This document shows positions 9,144 to 48,342 of a DNA stretch of 64,000 nucleotides, in pieces. Within the stretch, counting starts at the first letter, position 1, and the number at the start of each line of letters is the position of its first letter. Source of the DNA: Escherichia coli (GTDB lineage: Bacteria; Pseudomonadota; Gammaproteobacteria; Enterobacterales; Enterobacteriaceae); NCBI RefSeq assembly GCF_003790525.1, contig NZ_CP033635.1; one strand, written 5' to 3'. Both the position numbers and the translations under genes were made by a program. The notes below the pieces were generated by a model that did not search any database, was not told the DNA's origin, and saw only the letters and a program-made list of their open reading frames with translations.

Positions 9144-10051
9144 AACGCGCTCCGGGTGTGAGACAGATTTTCAAAGGTGAGATCGGCATGAACCAGCAGT
9201 GTGCCGCGACGATGCGCCCAGCAGCCTGTAGAAACAGCAACGCCGATGGTTGACGGATGGCGGGCGGCAGATTCGATATGTACGCCCATCACTGAACTGT
9301 TGCCAGTCAGCCCTTGTGGACCAATCCCCAGACGGTTGAGTCCTTCTTCCAGGCGTAGCTCCAGCTCTGCCGCTTTCGGATTGGGGTGGCGGCTGCCAAT
9401 CGGGCGCAAAATGGCTTTACGCGAGAGCACGGCGGCGGTTTCCACCGAGGTAGCGATGCCAACGCCCACAAGTACCGGCGGACAGGCGTTTACGGCGAGG
9501 GTGGAGATATTTTCGAAGACGAATTTCACTACGCCTTCGTAGCCTTCTGACGGCATTAACACTTTCGAGCGGCCTGGTAGCGTGCAGCCGCCGCCTGCCA
9601 TGTAAACTTCGATTTCCGCATCGTCATTGTCGGGGATGATGTCCCAGGTGACCCACGGTACACCGCTGCCGGTATTTTTGCCGGTGTTTACTTCGTCAAA
9701 AATTTCTACCGCATTGTGACGCAGTGGCGCTTTGACGGTTGCCTCTTCCACGGCTTGTTTGAGTATGCTTTGCAGCTCGCCAAGCAGTGGGAAACGGGAA
9801 CCGACCTTAACAAAAAACATGATTTCGCCGGTGTCCTGACAGGCAGGACGATTCAGGTCGATCGCTTTTTGCATGTTATCGAACATCGTGTGGTAGATGA
9901 TTTTCCCCATCGACGATGTTTCGGCATCCTTTAGCTGTTTTAGTTTGTCCACCACGTCATCGGGCATTCGGGTAGAAATCATGGCGGTAAAGTTAGCGAC
10001 AATCTCCGTCAACTTATTCACTGCCTGTTGCTTATTACTTTCGCTCATCAT
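9140..10051 (-). CDS. ttdA: L(+)-tartrate dehydratase alpha subunit
   Basis: 303-aa ORF of the fumarate-hydratase class I / tartrate-dehydratase alpha family. Confidence 0.9.
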
Positions 10052-38110: not shown

Positions 38111-40006
<1,896 letters not shown>

Positions 40007-40024
40007 TAATCCTCCCGCCAGAAG

Positions 40025-40058
40025 AATAAAACATAGCCCGGTATACAAGTGTATACCG
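40025..40058 (+). terminator. parE rho-independent terminator
   Basis: agcccggtatac-aagt-gtataccgggct followed by TTTTTT. Confidence 0.75.
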
Positions 40059-40069
40059 GGCTTTTTTGA

Positions 40070-42211
40070 TCAAAATTCCATTTTCACCGTGAATTGCACT
40101 TCACGAGGATCGCCAATCTGGTTGCCCAGATTATTTGTGGCGATGGAAGAGGTGTAATACGTTTTATCAAACAGGTTTTTGACGTTTAATTGCAGTGTGA
40201 CCGGATACTGCAATTTCATTTTGTATGCGGCGAAGGCATCGGCAACGAAATAGCCTGGCAGATAATAGTCAGCCCCATTGGTTGCCGAACGACGGCTTAC
40301 GCCATGTCCACCACCGCCAAACGTCAGTGTGTTATTGCCAGGCATGTTATGAATGTCATAAGTCAGGAATAGCGAACCGGTATGACGAGGAACATTCGGC
40401 AATGGTTTCCCTGCATAATCAGGATCCTCCAGAACCTTAGCATCGGTATAGCCGTAGCTGGCAATGATATTAATGTTTTCAGTTAATGCTCCCGCAAGGT
40501 CGACTTCTACCCCTCTTGAACGAACACGGCCTGCCGTTTTGGCAATGGTTTCATCACCAACACTTTCGGTATACAACACATTACGTTTATGGATATCAAA
40601 CAGCGCAATATCTGCGGTGATACCATCGAATAGCTCGAATTTTGCCCCGACTTCGTAAGCATTAGATGATTCCGGTGGAAGATCGCCAATGTAGCTGGCA
40701 ATTGACGACTGCGGCATAAATGTTTGCGAATAATTGGCAAATAAGGATACCGATGGCGTCAGTTTGTAGACTAACCCCAGTTTGGGAGTCCATTGTTCAT
40801 CGCGGCTGTCAGTATTGACATTAAAAGGACGGCCTTTACCCGCATACTGCGTGTAATACTGATAGCGGATCCCGGCGACGGCAATCCAGTTATCGGTCAG
40901 ATAGAGTGCGTCCTGTGCATACGCTGAGTAGCTCTCCTGTTTGATCGTCTGATCACTGTCCGACGCCGAAACCGTTGTACATTTGCTGGTATTACCATAA
41001 ACAGGGTTGTAGATATTGAAATCTTTAGCTTTTTTACAGCGAATCATATCTGTACGCAGAAGATCATAATATTCATATGACACCCCACCCAGAATCTCAT
41101 TATAGAATCCGGCAATATCAACATTCCCTTGCAGATCCGCACGAGTAGCATGCATACGCTGGGTAGATCCCTGAGTTGCATCAACACGCCGTGTCAGTGT
41201 TCCTGTCGTTGCATCATACGCGGTAACACGCGCCTGATTATCGCTGTATTTATCCTGGCTGTAGCTGTAATCAAAGCGCGCTGTCCACTGGCTATTGAGA
41301 TGATATTCTGCGTTGAGTTGCGCCAGATCGGACTTTCCATCTGTAATATTAAACGGTTCGTCAAAACGTATTTTTCGATCAACGTTTACGGGCTGTTTCG
41401 TCGTAAGGTCGAAAATCGTTCCACGATCGAACGGAGTTTTATAGTCCCGATGGGAATAGAGCATAGTTACTGTTGCATTATCACCAAACCAGGTGAGTGA
41501 CGGGGCAATAAATGTACTGCGCTCTTTACCGAAGTTTCGCCAGTAATCTTCATCCTGCACTTCCCCGGTAAGGCGATACGCCAGCTGAGTGCCTTCAATG
41601 GGACCTGTGATATCAAGTTGCCCAGTGCCGCCACCAAAACTGGAGGAGGTGGCTGAAACCGAACCATGGAATGTTTTTTCCGGGCGCTTGGTCACGACGT
41701 TAATCAGTCCACCAGGATCGAGAATGCCATACAGCGTGGAGGCCGGACCTTTTAGCACTTCCACACGTTCTGTGGCGGCGTTGAAACTGCGAGGAAGTAC
41801 AGTTCGCAGGCCGTTGGTCATGATGGAGCCATCCCGGTTAGCACCAAACCCACGACGTACAAAGGCGTCCTGAGTTCCGCCTAATGTATTGGTCTGTACC
41901 ACGTTACTGACGTTATAAAGCGCTTCATCCAGCGTCGTCGCATTCTGATTTTCCAGAACCTGATCGCTAACAGTATTGACCACCTGCGGGATATCCAGCA
42001 TCGGCATATCGGTTAATGTCGCCGTGGAAGTGCTCAGAGGTTGATAACCATCGGTTGCCTCAGTTGCGGTATTTGCATCTGCTGTAACAGTGATTGTTTC
42101 GCCATCTTTGGTCGTTACAGAGTCTGTTGCATGAATCATCGGTGCCGCAAAAAGCAGTGAAAAGAGCGCCCGACCTTTGAGTCCTGAGAATGAAGGTGTG
42201 AACATAGCCAT
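40070..42211 (-). CDS. TonB-dependent outer-membrane siderophore receptor (accessory)
   Basis: 713-aa ORF with a signal peptide, TonB box ETITVTA, plug and beta-barrel, and a C-terminal aromatic residue (MEF). Confidence 0.85.
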   Translation of the reverse strand: MAMFTPSFSGLKGRALFSLLFAAPMIHATDSVTTKDGETITVTADANTATEATDGYQPLSTSTATLTDMPMLDIPQVVNTVSDQVLENQNATTLDEALYNVSNVVQTNTLGGTQDAFVRRGFGANRDGSIMTNGLRTVLPRSFNAATERVEVLKGPASTLYGILDPGGLINVVTKRPEKTFHGSVSATSSSFGGGTGQLDITGPIEGTQLAYRLTGEVQDEDYWRNFGKERSTFIAPSLTWFGDNATVTMLYSHRDYKTPFDRGTIFDLTTKQPVNVDRKIRFDEPFNITDGKSDLAQLNAEYHLNSQWTARFDYSYSQDKYSDNQARVTAYDATTGTLTRRVDATQGSTQRMHATRADLQGNVDIAGFYNEILGGVSYEYYDLLRTDMIRCKKAKDFNIYNPVYGNTSKCTTVSASDSDQTIKQESYSAYAQDALYLTDNWIAVAGIRYQYYTQYAGKGRPFNVNTDSRDEQWTPKLGLVYKLTPSVSLFANYSQTFMPQSSIASYIGDLPPESSNAYEVGAKFELFDGITADIALFDIHKRNVLYTESVGDETIAKTAGRVRSRGVEVDLAGALTENINIIASYGYTDAKVLEDPDYAGKPLPNVPRHTGSLFLTYDIHNMPGNNTLTFGGGGHGVSRRSATNGADYYLPGYFVADAFAAYKMKLQYPVTLQLNVKNLFDKTYYTSSIATNNLGNQIGDPREVQFTVKMEF

Positions 42212-42311
42212 TTAGTCTGTTATCCCAAAAACTCGCGGATTGTCGCGAGTGAAAATTGTTTCTTATTGCTCACTAAGCACTATCCGTTTGTTATTTCGCC
42301 ATCGGATATGT

Positions 42312-42330
42312 AATTGAGAATCATTCAATC
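42312..42330. promoter_or_regulatory. Candidate Fur box in the divergent receptor/ABC promoter region
   Basis: aattGAGAATCATTCaatc partially matches the GATAATGATAATCATTATC consensus (about 12 of 19). Confidence 0.25.
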
Positions 42331-42584
42331 ACGCAGTAATGTAGTAGTAAATGAGAAATAACAAAAAATTGCTACATGTGTTTTTATGAAAAGTTTATAC
42401 AATTTGATTGCTTTTAATTTATTGATATTTAATGGTTTTGTTTTTATGTGCAAAAATATTTTACCTGTTATTTACCTTGTTTTTGTGTGGCTTTTAACTG
42501 CTTGACTACTACATTTTGTGGCGTCAAACTCTCAAAGGAGAATGAGTTTTATTTTTGTTTGTCTTTGATTAAGTTGGCGTACAC

Positions 42585-43394
42585 GTGGCACATAACGCAA
42601 AAGGGCAGGGGCTGATCCTCGACAATGTTTCTGCCGGGTATCACAAGAAAATCATTGTTGATGGTGTTTCTTTCTCCGTTCCCACAGAAAAAATGACCGT
42701 TCTGGTTGGGGCAAACGGCTGTGGAAAGTCGACGCTGCTCAGCACCATTGCTCGTATCTTGCAACCCATGGGCGGTTCGATATTGCTGGATGGTAAAGCG
42801 ATTCACGAGCAACCAACGAAAGCGTTATCCCGTAGACTTGGGATCTTGCCGCAGTCGCCATTATTGCCGGAGGGCTTAACCGTTTATGAACTGGTGTCGC
42901 GTGGGCGTTTTCCCTGGCAGAATTTCATTCGTCAATGGAGCGACGCCGATGAGCTGGCGGTAGAAGAGGCCCTGAAATTAACGGGTACGCAGGAGTTTGC
43001 ACATTTACCTGTTGAAAAACTCTCTGGTGGGCAGCGCCAGCGTTGCTGGATTGCGATGGTGTTGGCGCAAAAGACGCCTTATATCCTGCTGGATGAACCC
43101 ACAACCTGGCTTGATTTACGTTATCAGGTTGAAATTCTTGAGTTATTACATGATTTAACGCGTCATCACGGGCGTACAGTCGTCGTGGTGTTGCATGATC
43201 TGAATTTTGCCGTCAATTATGGCGATACGTTGATATTTTTACGCCAGGGGAAAGTGGTGCGTGTGTTGAATGAGGGGGAGCATTGCACGCCTGAGCTGGT
43301 AAAAGCGGTCTTTGACGTTGATGTTCACGCATCAATAAATCCTCTGACGGGAAAGCCGTTCTTCATGCCGTTTCGTGGTGTAGAAAAAGTATGA
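42585..43394 (+). CDS. ABC transporter ATP-binding protein (FecE/FepC-like)
   Basis: Walker A GANGCGKST, signature LSGGQRQR, Walker B ILLDEP; GTG start with a weak SD. Confidence 0.85.
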   Translation: MAHNAKGQGLILDNVSAGYHKKIIVDGVSFSVPTEKMTVLVGANGCGKSTLLSTIARILQPMGGSILLDGKAIHEQPTKALSRRLGILPQSPLLPEGLTVYELVSRGRFPWQNFIRQWSDADELAVEEALKLTGTQEFAHLPVEKLSGGQRQRCWIAMVLAQKTPYILLDEPTTWLDLRYQVEILELLHDLTRHHGRTVVVVLHDLNFAVNYGDTLIFLRQGKVVRVLNEGEHCTPELVKAVFDVDVHASINPLTGKPFFMPFRGVEKV

Positions 43395-44374
43395 TGCGCA
43401 CAGGGCTGGTTACTGTAATTTTCCTCGCCTTACTGCTGGTGGGATGCGTGGTATATCCAGGGATTGGTGCCCGATTTATTGCACCACAAACGGTGTTGCA
43501 GGCATTTCTTCATTTTGATCCGCAAAACTTCGATCACAACGTAATTGTAAGACTCCGTTTGCCGCGTTTAGCGGCAGCATTGCTTACCGGTGCTTCTCTT
43601 GGAGTTGCTGGTGCTTTGTTGCAGGCTGTCATTCGTAACCCATTGGGGGAGCCACATATTTTAGGCTTAAATGCCGGAGCCGCTCTTGCTGTCGTTGCTG
43701 CCAGTGCGCTTGGGCTGGCCTTTCCGGTTGGACGCCCACTGCTGGCATCTACGGGCGGCGCGTTATTGTTCCTGTTGATATTGCTGCTTTCCTCCGCAGG
43801 GCGTTCAGGGTTAACGCCAATGAAAGTTACTTTATGCGGCGTGGCGCTATCGGCGTTCGTGTCCTCAATAACGGCTGCAATCCTGATTCTTGACGAACAA
43901 ACACTGCTGGCGATGCGGACATGGCTAGCAGGTGATTTAGCGGGGCAGGATTGGGCGACGCTGGGTACGTCCGCCTGGTTTTCTCTGGGGGGATTTGTGT
44001 TAGCCCTTTACCTTGCACCCTCCCTTAACATGTTGGCACTGGGCGATCGCATGGCGCAGGGGCTGGGCGTCTCTGTATTCCGCACGCGAACATTCACCCT
44101 GCTTGCGATCGCGTTGCTCTGTGGCGCAGCCGTATCGATTGCTGGCCCCATTGGTTTTGTCGGCCTGCTAGTACCGCAGATTGTCCGGCGTCTGGTATCA
44201 GCGGATCTGCGCGTTCTGCTCCCTCTTTCAGCTTGTGTCGGCGCACTTTTGTTATTACTGGCAGATATTATTGCCCGTACGCTTTTCACACCCCATGAGT
44301 TAGCGACCGGTGTCATGACGGCGTTAGTTGGTGCGCCTGTTTTTGTCATTATGGCGACGAGGATGTTCAAATGA
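43391..44374 (+). CDS. ABC transporter permease, FecCD family
   Basis: 327-aa polytopic ORF; start overlaps the ATPase stop. Confidence 0.85.
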   Translation: MMRTGLVTVIFLALLLVGCVVYPGIGARFIAPQTVLQAFLHFDPQNFDHNVIVRLRLPRLAAALLTGASLGVAGALLQAVIRNPLGEPHILGLNAGAALAVVAASALGLAFPVGRPLLASTGGALLFLLILLLSSAGRSGLTPMKVTLCGVALSAFVSSITAAILILDEQTLLAMRTWLAGDLAGQDWATLGTSAWFSLGGFVLALYLAPSLNMLALGDRMAQGLGVSVFRTRTFTLLAIALLCGAAVSIAGPIGFVGLLVPQIVRRLVSADLRVLLPLSACVGALLLLLADIIARTLFTPHELATGVMTALVGAPVFVIMATRMFK

Positions 44375-45420
44375 GTCGGATAATGAACGTCGGGCTACGC
44401 CCACTACGTGTTGGTAAGTTTTCGACACTGGTACGCCCTAAAAATCTGCTGTTGCTTGGTGGGCTGTTCCTGCTTGCGGTTGGAATACTGATATTCGGTC
44501 TGATGCAGGGTTCTTTCTCTGTTCCGGCATCGGAAGTAGGACGAGCGTTGTTTGCTCCAGAAAACGTAAGCACAGACGCACGTTATATTGTGCAGGATAT
44601 TCGCTTGCCGAGAGTCATCATGGCATTGCTATGCGGGGCCATGTTAGGTATGGCAGGGGCCGCAATGCAATCCATTGCACGTAACGGCCTTGCCGATCCT
44701 GGTTTAATCGGCGTCAAAGAAGGATGTAGCGTGGCTGTGCTGTGGCTGATTTTCCAGTTTCCAATGCTGGGAATGTTCTGGCGTCCAGTGGCTGGTCTTG
44801 CTGGTGGCCTGTTGGTGGCTTTAATCGTGATTTTTTGTGCGCGCGATATTTCCCGCCCGCGATTTGTTCTGATTGGTATTGGTGTTTCCTGGTTTTTCGC
44901 CGCCGGTATCGGTGTATTTATGACCACTGCAGATGTTCGAGATGTACAAACTGCATTGATGTGGTTATCGGGAAGCCTGCATGCAGCTAACTGGATGTTA
45001 GTCGCTATTTCAGCCTGTTGGATGTTGCCAGCCGCTCTTTTATTGCTGTTCACCGCCAGGACGGCGGATATCGCTCTGCTTGGTCATCAGGTTGCAACCG
45101 GGTTAGGGGTGAATAGTTCTCGTCTGGCGTTGTTACGTGTCGCTGCACCCATAATCCTGACAGCCGTCTGCGTTTCGTGTGTTGGTAACATCGGTTTTGT
45201 CGGATTGATAGCACCCCATATATCACGTTTTATTCTACGTGGCGGGCAGACGACATTACTGCTGGGGAGCGCGGTATCGGGGGCGTTGTTAGTTATTCTG
45301 GCGGATAGCATTGGTCGTTTGGCTTTTTTGCCTTTGCAACTGCCTGCCGGAATCATTATCTCACTGATTGGTGGACCATTTTTTTTGCTACTGCTCTGGC
45401 AGCGCAGGAACAGTTTTTAA
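44371..45420 (+). CDS. ABC transporter permease, FecCD family
   Basis: 349-aa polytopic ORF; overlaps the upstream permease by 4 nt. Confidence 0.85.
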   Translation: MSRIMNVGLRPLRVGKFSTLVRPKNLLLLGGLFLLAVGILIFGLMQGSFSVPASEVGRALFAPENVSTDARYIVQDIRLPRVIMALLCGAMLGMAGAAMQSIARNGLADPGLIGVKEGCSVAVLWLIFQFPMLGMFWRPVAGLAGGLLVALIVIFCARDISRPRFVLIGIGVSWFFAAGIGVFMTTADVRDVQTALMWLSGSLHAANWMLVAISACWMLPAALLLLFTARTADIALLGHQVATGLGVNSSRLALLRVAAPIILTAVCVSCVGNIGFVGLIAPHISRFILRGGQTTLLLGSAVSGALLVILADSIGRLAFLPLQLPAGIIISLIGGPFFLLLLWQRRNSF

Positions 45421-45430
45421 CGGGAGTTAT

Positions 45431-46378
45431 ATGCGTTTATTTTTTTCTCTGCTGATACTGTTGTCATTTTTTTCCCGTGCAACAGAACCTGTTCAGGTAT
45501 TTACTGATGATTTAGGGCGCAAAGTCACTGTTCCTGCTCATCCAAAGAGAATTGTCTCTTTACACGATCTTGATATCACTATTCCTCTGATTGAGCTCGG
45601 TGTACCTCCTGTCGCCAGCCACGGGCGAACTCGGCCTGACGGTAGCCATTTCATTCGATCTGGCGCGTTATTGACAGGTGTCGACTTTGATAATTCATCG
45701 ATCGCCTTTATTGGTACCGCTGATATTGATATTGAAGCGATTGTGGCGGCAAAGCCTGACCTGATCATCACAGAACCGACCCGTAATACGCCCATTGAAC
45801 AACTTGAAAAAATTGCGCCCACGGTGAGCATTGATCATCTCAAAGGGGGCGCGCCAGAAATCTATCGCAAGCTGGCAGAACTTACAGGAACGCAGTCGCA
45901 GCTGGCGATACTTGAACGCCGCTATCAGGCACAAATCAATGCGCTGAAGGCGACGCTGGACAGCCAAAAAATAACGGTATCGGTGATTCAGGCAAACCAG
46001 GGAAAAATTAATGTGATGCATAGCTATCATTCGCTGGGGCGGGTATTACGCGATGCTGGTTTTCGTTTTCCGCCGCTGATTGAGAGCATTCCTGAAGGTG
46101 GGCGAATGGATGTGAGCGCGGAGCGTTTACCTGAACTGGATGCCGATTTTGTTTTTGCAACCTGGCGCGGTGACACCGGTGGTAAACCTCAGGATGAGCT
46201 GGCAGCAATGGAAAAAGTCATGCCGGGATGGTGTCAGTTTCTGACTGCCTGTCGTTCCGGGCGTTATGTGCTGATTTCTCGTGAAGAGGCGATTTCTAAC
46301 TCCTTTGCATCTCTGGGGCTGATGGCTGCGCAGATACAATCACAAATTGCAGGGCGACCTCTACCGGAGGATAAATGA
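45431..46378 (+). CDS. Periplasmic substrate-binding protein (FecB/FepB-like, cluster A)
   Basis: Product starting MRLFFSLLILLSFFSRA (signal peptide) at the ATG at 45431, with a GGGAG SD. Confidence 0.8.
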   Translation: MRLFFSLLILLSFFSRATEPVQVFTDDLGRKVTVPAHPKRIVSLHDLDITIPLIELGVPPVASHGRTRPDGSHFIRSGALLTGVDFDNSSIAFIGTADIDIEAIVAAKPDLIITEPTRNTPIEQLEKIAPTVSIDHLKGGAPEIYRKLAELTGTQSQLAILERRYQAQINALKATLDSQKITVSVIQANQGKINVMHSYHSLGRVLRDAGFRFPPLIESIPEGGRMDVSAERLPELDADFVFATWRGDTGGKPQDELAAMEKVMPGWCQFLTACRSGRYVLISREEAISNSFASLGLMAAQIQSQIAGRPLPEDK

Positions 46379-47262
46379 TCCAGAAAGATAAAGCGCGGGT
46401 TGATATTTTTGGTGAGCGTTTTCGCACTCGCGCGAGTCAGTTAACGCCTGGGTTAAGAGTTGTCGCCAGCTACATTAATGAGCATCGTGAAGTGGTACTC
46501 GAGCAAACGGCGATGGAAATTGCGGCCACGTTGAACACTTCCGATGCCACAGTTATCAGGGCTATACAGGCCCTGGGGTTTGCCGGGCTGCGTGATCTGA
46601 AACGCACTCTGGAACAGTGGCTTGGTCCAGCCCTTAGTTCCAGCGAAAAGATGTCTACGACGGTGAGTAACTTGACGAGCGATGTTAACACCGCAATCGA
46701 CTTTGTTCTTGAAGGGCATTTGTATACCTGTAATGTCCTGTCAGAGCCTGAAAACCGCCACGCGCTTGCGCAAGCTGTAGCGTTGTTGGTGCAGGCACGG
46801 CAAGTCGCTATTTTTGGCATTGGCGCTTCGGGTATCCTGGCGGACTATACCGCACGACTATTCAACCGCATAGGTTTGCCTGCCACGGCACTAAACCGTA
46901 CGGGTATTGGCCTTGCCGAGCAACTGATCGCGCTTCAACGTGGCGATGTTCTGATCATGATGGCGCAAAAATCTGCGCACCGGGAAGGGCTGACAACGCT
47001 TCGTGAGGCGAGGCGGCTGGGGATCCCTGTTATTTTGCTGACAAACGCGCTGGATTCACGTTTTAGCAAAGACGCCAGTATCGTGATTCATGTTCCGCGC
47101 GGGGATGAAAAAGGGAAAACGCCGCTACATGGTACGGTATTGTTGTGTCTGGAAATGATTGTCTGGTCGGTAGCTTCCGCAGTGCCGCAGCGTGCGGTTA
47201 AAACCATTAAGCGAATTAACGATTTCCATCGAGGACTGAAAACGGGAAGAAAGAATGGCTAA
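46375..47262 (+). CDS. RpiR/MurR-family transcriptional regulator (HTH plus SIS domain)
   Basis: 295-aa ORF with an N-terminal HTH (TAMEIAATLNTSDATVIRAIQALGFAGLRDLK) and a SIS phosphosugar-binding fold (IFGIGASGILA); overlaps the binding-protein stop. Confidence 0.8.
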   Translation: MIQKDKARVDIFGERFRTRASQLTPGLRVVASYINEHREVVLEQTAMEIAATLNTSDATVIRAIQALGFAGLRDLKRTLEQWLGPALSSSEKMSTTVSNLTSDVNTAIDFVLEGHLYTCNVLSEPENRHALAQAVALLVQARQVAIFGIGASGILADYTARLFNRIGLPATALNRTGIGLAEQLIALQRGDVLIMMAQKSAHREGLTTLREARRLGIPVILLTNALDSRFSKDASIVIHVPRGDEKGKTPLHGTVLLCLEMIVWSVASAVPQRAVKTIKRINDFHRGLKTGRKNG

Positions 47263-47306
47263 TCTGGGCTGAGACCGGTAGCAACACCGGCCTCTTTTCA
47301 GGAATG

Positions 47307-47621
47307 TTAAATCCCCGGTTGCAGGATGCGGATATTCATCTCCAGCACATCGCCTTTTACGGCCTCGCTGTACGCTTTCATGTGCGGGGTCTGCAAGTGC
47401 GCTTCAAGATGCGCGATGCTTTCCCACTGCTCAATCATCACGATAGAATCCGGTGCCATAGACTGGAAACTCACGCCAGCAGCGCAATCCACCATTGGCG
47501 CATAGCCGTGGCAACCTTCTTCTTTCAGTACGGTTGGAACGATTTTAGCAAACTGATCCAACACTGCCTGACGGTGATGTTGACCAGGACGAGTACGGAT
47601 TTCTGCGATTACTGTAATCAT
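47307..47621 (-). CDS. ygiN: Quinol monooxygenase
   Basis: 104-aa ORF MITVIAEIRTRPGQHHRQAVLDQF... (ABM domain). Confidence 0.9.
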   Translation of the reverse strand: MITVIAEIRTRPGQHHRQAVLDQFAKIVPTVLKEEGCHGYAPMVDCAAGVSFQSMAPDSIVMIEQWESIAHLEAHLQTPHMKAYSEAVKGDVLEMNIRILQPGI

Positions 47622-47651
47622 GGTTAACTCCTTCTAAAGCCAGAGCTCTAG

Positions 47652-48233
47652 TTAACCAAAAATTTCCACAAGATGCTTGCGATATTCTTCAGTATAGCGG
47701 GGAACATCAGGCATTTTTATCACGTCATTAGCGATAAATGTCGGCAGCGGTTCCATGCCAAGGAATTGGTTTGCTTTATGAAACGGCAGGTACACACCGT
47801 CAACACCAACGCCGTGGAAGAACTGATCTTTTTCGGTGAAGGCTTCCATTGGTGCGTTCCAGGTCAGAGAAAGCATATATTTTTTGCCCTGTACCAGGCC
47901 GCCGGAGCCGTATTTTTTCGACGGATCTTTGCGGGTACGACCATCGCTGGCATACAGCGTCCCGTGACCTTCGGTGAATACATCATCAATGTATTTTTTC
48001 ACTGTCCACGGCGCGCCCATCCACCAGCCTGGCATCTGCCAGATCACCACATCAGCCCAGAGAAAGTTTTGTACTTCCGCTTTGACATCGTAGTCGCTGT
48101 CGGCGCGAACGATGCGGACATCATGCCCGAGGTCGCGCAGTGTGCCATCCGCGACTTCGGTCAGGGTGTCGTTCAGTTGACCATTGGAGTGGGCGAATTT
48201 TTTCGCGCCGTTGATAATCAGGATGTTGCTCAT
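47652..48233 (-). CDS. mdaB: NADPH:quinone oxidoreductase
   Basis: 193-aa ORF MSNILIINGAKKFAHSNGQLNDTL... Confidence 0.9.
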   Translation of the reverse strand: MSNILIINGAKKFAHSNGQLNDTLTEVADGTLRDLGHDVRIVRADSDYDVKAEVQNFLWADVVIWQMPGWWMGAPWTVKKYIDDVFTEGHGTLYASDGRTRKDPSKKYGSGGLVQGKKYMLSLTWNAPMEAFTEKDQFFHGVGVDGVYLPFHKANQFLGMEPLPTFIANDVIKMPDVPRYTEEYRKHLVEIFG

Positions 48234-48342
48234 TTTTTAACCTTAAGGTGAGACGTTTGCCGACTATAGTACGTCACAGAGCGGTACGGTGAAATTAGCA
48301 AAATGTGCAAAGTCTTTTGCGAATTTAGCAAAAGTCTTACCC

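Follow-up and report, generated by a model that had tools for sequence, protein, structure and literature searches.

The accessory fit iron-uptake locus between parE and ygiN of an Escherichia coli chromosome, and a candidate operator for its repressor FitR

Identity of the island with the published fit locus

A stretch of 64,000 nucleotides of the Escherichia coli contig NZ_CP033635.1 (assembly GCF_003790525.1), referred to here as the window, carries an island of six genes between parE and ygiN. On the basis of its sequence we identify this island (40070-47262) as the fit locus (fitA, fitBCDE and fitR) of Ouyang and Isaacson. An earlier sequence-only reading of the same DNA had noted a resemblance to fit, and the correspondence turned out to be one of identity. 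Taken as a whole, the evidence makes it very probable that fit is an uptake-only, TonB-dependent importer of iron-siderophores whose divergent promoters are controlled by both Fur and FitR. The locus itself is already known, and the sole new element is a candidate operator of FitR together with the two-layer promoter layout described below.

The strongest evidence for this identity comes from published primers, a crystallized protein and the length of the locus. All of the fit primers of PMC2593036 (16/16) could be placed on the window at 0-1 mismatch, and their gene, order and orientation are as expected: the fitA quantitative polymerase chain reaction primers lie at 41391-41410 and 41448-41467, the fitB primers at 42742-42828, the fit promoter primers at 42233-42254 and 42568-42591, four fitR primer pairs within fitR and the primers for fitC, fitD and fitE each within the gene concerned. 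Primers for fepA, gst and polA from the same paper served as controls and had no match in the window. Mature FitE is identical at 294 of 297 residues, with three substitutions, to the protein in PDB entries 3BE5 and 3BE6, which are named as E. coli FitE in PMC2966073 and PMC10553834; these entries are a class III periplasmic binding protein in open and closed forms, and their descriptions mention no siderophore ligand. Furthermore, the island is 7193 bp long, which matches a table entry of PMC12928451 (2026) that reads GR22, ygiN..parE, 7193 bp, fit operon. The fit locus of strain i484 and the island have the six genes in identical order and orientation and the same divergent promoter fragment, with site and length as for the fit operon of PMC12928451, and the differences are merely allelic. 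Over 8.3 kb the window and E. coli CREC-544, in which RefSeq annotates the six genes alike, under generic names, are 100% identical, and the window allele is 97-99% identical to those of most other fit-positive genomes.

The island had been singled out as a candidate for a poorly characterized system, but it is already partly characterized. The name fit dates to 2006 (Ouyang and Isaacson, Infect Immun, as cited in later papers), the fit locus of strain i484 was also the subject of a 2008 report in Open Microbiol J in which repression by Fur and FitR was shown experimentally (PMC2593036), and FitE has been crystallized. The published nomenclature assigns the receptor to fitA, the ATPase to fitB, the two permeases to fitC and fitD, the binding protein to fitE and the regulator to fitR. 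As an accessory system for iron uptake, fit was known already; it shows enrichment among extraintestinal and adherent-invasive E. coli and is found also in Klebsiella, and its rediscovery adds nothing new in kind.

Transport route and probable cargo

FitA matches the TonB-dependent siderophore receptor model TIGR01783 over residues 73-713 with 375.2 bits, where the cut-off is 223.5 (E = 7e-112). A signal peptide and, after it, a TonB-box-like ETITVTA near the N-terminus can be read directly from the protein, which is without an N-terminal signalling extension. In the NCBIfam profile comparison FitA failed the B12, heme, zinc-piracy and pyrroloquinoline quinone (PQQ) models. The ATPase and the permeases gave family matches of the FecCD/FecE, FhuB/FhuC and FepC types with E-values of 1e-55 to 1e-84, and the two FecCD permeases, one ATPase and class III binding protein make up a FecCD/BtuCD-type (type II) ATP-binding cassette (ABC) importer. 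By homology, FitA would bring a ferric chelate across the outer membrane with energy from TonB, FitE would take the chelate through the periplasm, and the FitC and FitD permeases would, with the FitB ATPase, pump it into the cytoplasm.

The Fhu, Fox and FhuE systems share with Fit a TonB-dependent receptor, a binding protein, a FecCD-type ABC importer and Fur control. However, FoxA of Pseudomonas has an N-terminal signalling domain that FitA lacks, Fhu has a fused FhuB permease whereas Fit has two separate permeases, and Fit differs from all three in having its own cytoplasmic repressor. Like Fit, the Fec system (FecA, FecBCDE and FecIR) has a regulator of its own, as few E. coli iron transporters do, and the best scores of FitB and FitC are to FecE and FecC (FitB with 282 bits, below the FecE cut-off of 375). 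The two systems part in their control, which in Fec is a surface-signalling sigma/anti-sigma pair and in Fit an RpiR/SIS repressor, and in the scores of FitE against FecB (37 bits, cut-off 320) and of FitA against FecA (102 bits, cut-off 1100). FitA stays below every other substrate-specific equivalog cut-off as well, namely those of FhuA (231 vs 803), FoxA (167 vs 1300), FhuE (161 vs 666), Fiu, FepA, CirA, IreA, FauA and BtuB. Because all scores are far under the cut-offs, the profiles place Fit outside the Fhu, Fox, FhuE, Fec and Fep equivalog families.

We also used FitR to query a set of genomes, one for each species, and obtained 75 loci. Across these, the genes recurring with FitR were solely those for a TonB-dependent receptor, a binding protein, permeases and an ATPase, and no biosynthesis or catabolic genes co-conserved with fitR recurred. 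Since only transport genes recur with fitR, fit looks uptake-only, for a siderophore made elsewhere. The most likely cargo, which we name with low confidence, would be a siderophore of other organisms of the hydroxamate or citrate-hydroxamate kind. We lean toward hydroxamates because the closest receptors of known specificity to FitA are FoxA, FhuA and FhuE, and the closest solved relatives of FitE, after FitE itself, are YfiY and FhuD of Bacillus subtilis.

Several points tell against so specific an assignment. The lean toward hydroxamates is weak, as it rests on similarities of roughly 25-35%, and none of the Fit proteins scores above the cut-off of a substrate-specific NCBIfam model. A 2018 paper on Klebsiella describes the Fit substrate as unknown and excludes enterobactin (PMC5907654), and a 2022 paper on adherent-invasive E. 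coli, in whose strains FitA was among the outer-membrane proteins identified, found, apart from ferrichrome-receptor-like domains, no functional data for FitA (PMC9409007). The sequence-only reading, which called the substrate unknown, agrees with both papers, and literature searches for a Fit substrate or a FitE ligand returned nothing past "unknown; not enterobactin".

Control of fit by two repressors

FitR has the MurR/RpiR architecture, with an HTH_6 domain at residues 15-81 (E = 1.9e-9) and a SIS domain at residues 138-247 (E = 1.3e-13), and all of its equivalog scores are under the cut-offs. Experiments in strain i484 have established Fur and FitR as two repressors of fit, with FitR also repressing itself; expression is repressed by iron and Fur, FitR represses fitA and fitB fusions approximately 3-5-fold, and a spacer fragment was shifted by FitR in gels, with the binding sites left unmapped (PMC2593036). 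The spacer between fitA and fitB in the window corresponds to this shifted fragment. The family members MurR, HexR, AlsR and RpiR share with FitR the HTH_6 plus SIS architecture and the function of a repressor. However, the known members serve sugar/phosphosugar metabolism and respond to phosphosugars, whereas FitR goes with a siderophore transporter, and no sugar-metabolism genes recur with fitR across the 75 loci. The presence of a SIS domain suggests that FitR responds to a small-molecule effector. Each divergent promoter would be shut by two independent repressors, Fur-Fe2+ for iron control and FitR, the latter being released by a small-molecule ligand of its SIS domain.

We footprinted the spacer by aligning it among 18 genera or species and then among ~70 promoters. 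The spacer has diverged nearly throughout, and four blocks are kept. In the receptor direction these are TTTACTACTACA and, after N9, (A/G)TG(A/T)TTGAATGATTCTCAATTACA; in the fitB direction they are TTGACTACTACA and, after ~N11 and a -10-like CA(A/T)(A/G)(A/C)T, AAAGAGAATGAG.TTTATTT. Across ~70 species the footprinting shows an invariant 12-mer, TT(T/G)ACTACTACA, that covers the putative -35 of both divergent promoters. Its two copies in the window, designated O_A and O_B (Table 1), were also picked up independently by the repeat search as the inverted repeat 42338-42351 / 42502-42515. The 9-mer core of this element occurs 128 times in the 1.5 Mb of fetched loci, where ~11 occurrences are expected, and ~115 of the 128 lie within receptor/fitB or receptor/fitR spacers. 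The 12-mer adjoins nearly every FitR orthologue whatever the type of receptor, the orthologue of the alphaproteobacterium Xanthobacter included. Among 25 FitR loci with a different receptor (35-38% identical to FitA), 23 have the exact receptor-side 12-mer and one has it with one mismatch, while the remaining locus (L038) has an exact receptor-side copy at 9373, just beyond the scanned 9401-10010. From this distribution we infer that FitR binds the 12-mer TT(T/G)ACTACTACA overlapping each -35.

The other two conserved blocks contain GAATGA, and we infer that they are Fur boxes situated at or just after the -10 elements. In Enterobacterales the block on the fitA side is invariant or nearly so, and the one on the fitB side is kept in the form given above. 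Both are missing from the Xanthobacter locus (L075) and from a related metagenome-assembled genome (L070), in which the 12-mer is present at both promoters. Such a separation is as expected if the 12-mer belongs to FitR and the Fur-like blocks to enterobacterial Fur. Separate sites, over the -35 for FitR and at the -10 for Fur, would also explain the independent action of both repressors.

This layout has to be set against several observations that speak against it. The 12-mer is non-palindromic, which is unusual for a helix-turn-helix dimer, and it could be conserved partly as a -35 element and not as an operator. The distance between its two copies takes values of ~155-158, 164-166, 178, 181, 184, 186-189, 255 and 264 bp, without helical phasing. 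Matches to the Fur consensus are 12/19 for the box on the fitA side and 12-13/19 for that on the fitB side, and 156 19-mers in the window match at >=12/19, so by chance alone the boxes are unremarkable. A sigma-70 consensus scan with a threshold of 9/12 called no promoter in the spacer, and the -35 and -10 assignments therefore rest on conservation. Two ideas were set aside. Consensus matching was rejected as a means of detecting Fur boxes since, with matches of 12-13/19 so common, it provides no statistical support from sequence alone. DNA looping between the 12-mers was rejected as a necessary feature because their spacing varies without helical periodicity; moreover, where FitR is paired with a different receptor, one copy is the usual number.

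Some operators of the RpiR family, that of HexR for example, have half-sites of the TGTAAT type, and such a half-site is present at 42309-42314. The 12-mer may be a mere -35/spacer element or the site of another factor, with FitR bound elsewhere, for instance at the TGTAAT...ATTCAA block that we give to Fur. A good -35 hexamer (TTGACT or TTTACT) at the start of the 12-mer and the lack of a palindrome would suit this explanation. However, -35 hexamers usually drift between genera, and here none of the 12 positions varies between Enterobacterales and an alphaproteobacterium; L075 and L070 have lost the TGTAAT block despite the presence of FitR, and the 12-mer accompanies FitR whatever the receptor type. 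We therefore consider a mere promoter element unlikely, if still a serious contender, and favor the 12-mer as the FitR operator. The promoter boxes bear also on the nature of the cargo, which might be a metallophore or another non-iron ligand (cobalt, cadmium, zinc or a cofactor) and no ferric siderophore. PMC12928451 ties the fit operon to uptake of Fe2+, Co2+ and Cd2+, some of the top PDB matches carry the depositor name "metal-pseudopaline receptor CntO", and a SIS-domain regulator is atypical among iron systems. However, the statement in PMC12928451 cites just the 2006 iron-transport paper, identical PDB sequences are also labelled ferrioxamine receptor FoxA, and FitA passes the siderophore-receptor model while failing those for B12, heme, zinc piracy and PQQ. 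Repression by iron and Fur in E. coli, induction of the Klebsiella orthologue on iron depletion (PMC5907654) and the conserved candidate Fur-like boxes in both promoters likewise argue for iron. A non-iron cargo thus seems very unlikely to us, and an iron-siderophore remains the preferred cargo.

The candidate operator and the two-layer promoter layout open FitR binding to direct test and may define a FitR regulon across Enterobacterales. More broadly, FitR may represent a widespread class of SIS-domain repressors of TonB-dependent xenosiderophore receptors, spanning ~70 Enterobacterales species and one or more alphaproteobacteria, with TT(T/G)ACTACTACA over the receptor -35 as the operator and a sugar-like or phosphorylated effector that is perhaps derived from the siderophore. 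We put this generalization forward tentatively, as a possibility that is somewhat more likely to fail than to hold. If it is true, the FitR ligand and the 12-mer regulon would provide a route to the Fit substrate.

History of the parE-ygiN site

In K-12 (XL1-Blue), parE and ygiN are convergent and separated by a 47-bp spacer with no island, and in the fit-negative strain AR437 the two genes are adjacent with an identical spacer. The island was found in 34% (1870) of the 5426 complete E. coli genomes searched, and only one of the 5838 matching places in the E. coli search is on a plasmid. It is thus an accessory element between parE and ygiN, as the sequence-only reading had proposed. A further 405 of the 5426 genomes have at this site an alternative island of 8.2 kb (L079:741-8984; L080:9552-17793), which encodes a DUF2608 protein, a porin, a phytase-like esterase, a carbohydrate kinase, a SIS protein, an ADP-ribosylglycohydrolase, a GntR regulator and a major facilitator superfamily (MFS) transporter. 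Both island states share the first ~8 nt past the parE stop and ~26 nt before the ygiN stop, where the K-12 spacer differs; the ~26 nt common to both islands are the right half of the fitR-side hairpin and the nucleotides that follow it.

The open reading frame list and the tRNA and repeat searches revealed no integrase or insertion sequence (IS) reading frame, no tRNA and no junction-spanning direct repeat at the island. The absence of an integrase, IS element or direct repeat from the junctions, noted before, was in this way confirmed and extended to tRNA. The GC content of the island is 49.1%, compared to 50.7% for the window, and the island does not have the makeup of a mobile genomic island. 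It occurs at the same site in Escherichia sp. MOD1-EC7003 (L004), in a divergent representative labelled as species "E. coli" (L005) and, as seen from the ygiN side of a fetched locus that starts within fitE, in E. whittamii (L003). Nucleotide identity of L004 and L005 to the window is 91.5-96.3% for the fit genes and 92.4-95.5% for parE, ygiN and mdaB. As fit has diverged in step with its flanks, these values support an old insertion or replacement and a long residence in Escherichia, which is what the sequence-only reading had supposed; the existence of the alternative island points the same way. Protein identities of 96-98% for Fit in these lineages indicate purifying selection.

A recent horizontal gain by pathogenic lineages, with the K-12 arrangement as the ancestral one, is the alternative to be weighed here. 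It would account for an island in just 34% of genomes and for the report of fit almost exclusively in adherent-invasive strains of phylogroup B2 (PMC9409007); the module is also found in many other genera and on Pantoea megaplasmids, and the species-representative scan gave no locus titled E. albertii, E. fergusonii or Salmonella. However, mobility genes, tRNA and direct repeats are missing, the GC content is near that of the window, and the same-site fit loci of the three other Escherichia lineages have diverged as much as their flanks. In addition, fit adjoins parE in Enterobacter chuandaensis (L006) as well, and both island states share junction nucleotides that are missing from the K-12 spacer. 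We regard a recent gain as improbable. Instead, the data support the parE-ygiN interval as a long-standing polymorphic cassette position with three states (fit, alternative island and empty), at which fit has long been inherited with its flanks. The site provides a neat case of cassette replacement without mobility genes.

Two further observations concern this neighborhood. In E. chuandaensis, fit is followed by a module of ~6 kb (L006:10909-16706) before ygiN, in which we recognized by eye an AraC-like regulator, a 628-aa protein, an MFS transporter, a 417-aa glycoside hydrolase-like protein and a LysM/BON-like protein. Accumulation of cassettes in the parE-ygiN gap does not seem confined to a single genus. 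In the window, the gap between mdaB and qseC is 109 bp (48234-48342) and ygiZ (DUF2645), present in K-12 and in strain IBS28, is absent, which constitutes a second small presence/absence difference adjoining the fit site.

Distribution of fit and FitR beyond E. coli

Complete fitA/fitBCDER modules were found in Kosakonia, Citrobacter, Klebsiella, Raoultella, Kluyvera, Enterobacter, Erwinia and Acerihabitans, with protein identities of 58-89%, and also in Xanthobacter, with 51-66%. Rosenbergiella has fitBCDER (45-64%) beside a receptor that is just 36-37% identical to FitA. A second layout is found in Pantoea, Serratia, Rahnella, Tatumella, some Erwinia and some Enterobacter, in which an orthologue of FitR (63-73%) accompanies a different receptor, which is 34-38% identical to FitA, or 30% where the match is truncated at one locus. 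In 24 loci this layout also includes a binding protein of 367-380 aa that resembles the ferrichrome/ferrioxamine binding-protein model at scores below its cut-off.

In Erwinia sp. JUb26 (L018:6926-9992) and Pantoea coffeiphila (L021), and in these only, an insert of ~3 kb lies between fitE and fitR and encodes a 379-aa membrane protein and two proteins with PstS-like binding domains. The membrane protein, which has no NCBIfam match, resembles PepSY-type proteins in sequence and may be a ferric-siderophore reductase. Loci with FitR and a receptor were also found on large-plasmid records, namely Pantoea ananatis pPANA1 (L051), Pantoea sp. SOD02 pSOD02 (L056) and Pseudomonas sp. T1-3-2 p1 (L076).

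Gene layout and features of the region

The open reading frame list and the RefSeq annotation give six intact reading frames between parE and ygiN, with fitA divergent from fitB-fitC-fitD-fitE-fitR (Table 1). Every component listed by the sequence-only reading, from the minus-strand receptor and the AT-rich spacer of 373 bp to the ATPase, the two FecCD permeases, the binding protein and the regulator, is therefore present and intact. Its statement that the genes downstream of the spacer are all translationally coupled stands for fitB/fitC and fitE/fitR, whose junctions are ATGA overlaps. At fitC/fitD it depends on the start codon, as there is an 8-nt gap with the RefSeq start and an ATGA overlap with the fitC stop if the alternative ATG at 44371 is used, and it does not apply to fitD/fitE, where there is a 10-nt gap with a GGGAG Shine-Dalgarno sequence.

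Table 1. Coordinates of genes and predicted control elements in and around the fit locus (positions in the window)
Feature	Position	Strand	Description
parE	38114-40006	+	Left flank
parE/fitA hairpin	40035-40062		12-bp stem, 4-nt loop; seen in terminator scan, as inverted repeat and in sequence read
fitA	40070-42211	-	TonB-dependent outer-membrane siderophore receptor, 713 aa; WP_001240661.1
fitA/fitB control region	42212-42584		373 bp, 31% GC, divergent
Conserved block	42309-42331	-	+ strand TGTAATTGAGAATCATTCAA (42309-42328); putative Fur-like box overlapping the fitA -10
P_fitA extended -10	42331-42323	-	TGaTTGAAT, putative
P_fitA -35	42351-42346	-	TTTACT, putative; 17 nt upstream of -10
Candidate operator O_A	42340-42351	-	TGTAGTAGTAAA on + strand = TTTACTACTACA in fitA direction
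Candidate operator O_B	42502-42513	+	TTGACTACTACA; overlaps putative P_fitB -35 TTGACT
P_fitB -10	42525-42530	+	CAAACT, putative; 17-nt spacer from -35 TTGACT (+)
Second Fur-like box	42538-42556	+	GAGAATGAGTTTTATTTTT; putative, just past putative fitB -10
fitB	42585-43394	+	ABC transporter ATPase, GTG start, 269 aa
fitC	43391-44374	+	FecCD-family permease, 327 aa
fitD	44383-45420	+	Second FecCD-family permease, 345 aa from RefSeq start
fitE	45431-46378	+	Periplasmic class III siderophore-binding protein, 315 aa
fitR	46375-47262	+	MurR/RpiR-family repressor, 295 aa; HTH_6 + SIS
fitR-side hairpin	47271-47294	+	GAGACCGGT-agcaac-ACCGGCCTC then TTTTC; core 47275-47290
ygiN	47307-47621	-	Right flank

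Hairpins are found at both ends of the island, as had been claimed, at slightly different coordinates. The one ascribed to parE lies at 40035-40062 and not at 40025-40058; on the + strand it is followed by TTTTTT, in a T-run that reaches ~40068, and it is a predicted bidirectional terminator common to the convergent parE and fitA. The hairpin before ygiN, placed earlier at 47273-47300, was found at 47271-47294, adjoins the ygiN stop codon and is likely the terminator of fitR. An Rfam search of 39800-47700 gave as its sole match a plant miRNA family with 27.6 bits where the gathering score is 65, a match that we attribute to chance. A direct repeat of 51 nt with 73% identity links 44131-44181 in fitC to 45171-45221 in fitD; this is a conserved FecCD motif of the paralogous permeases and no mobile repeat.

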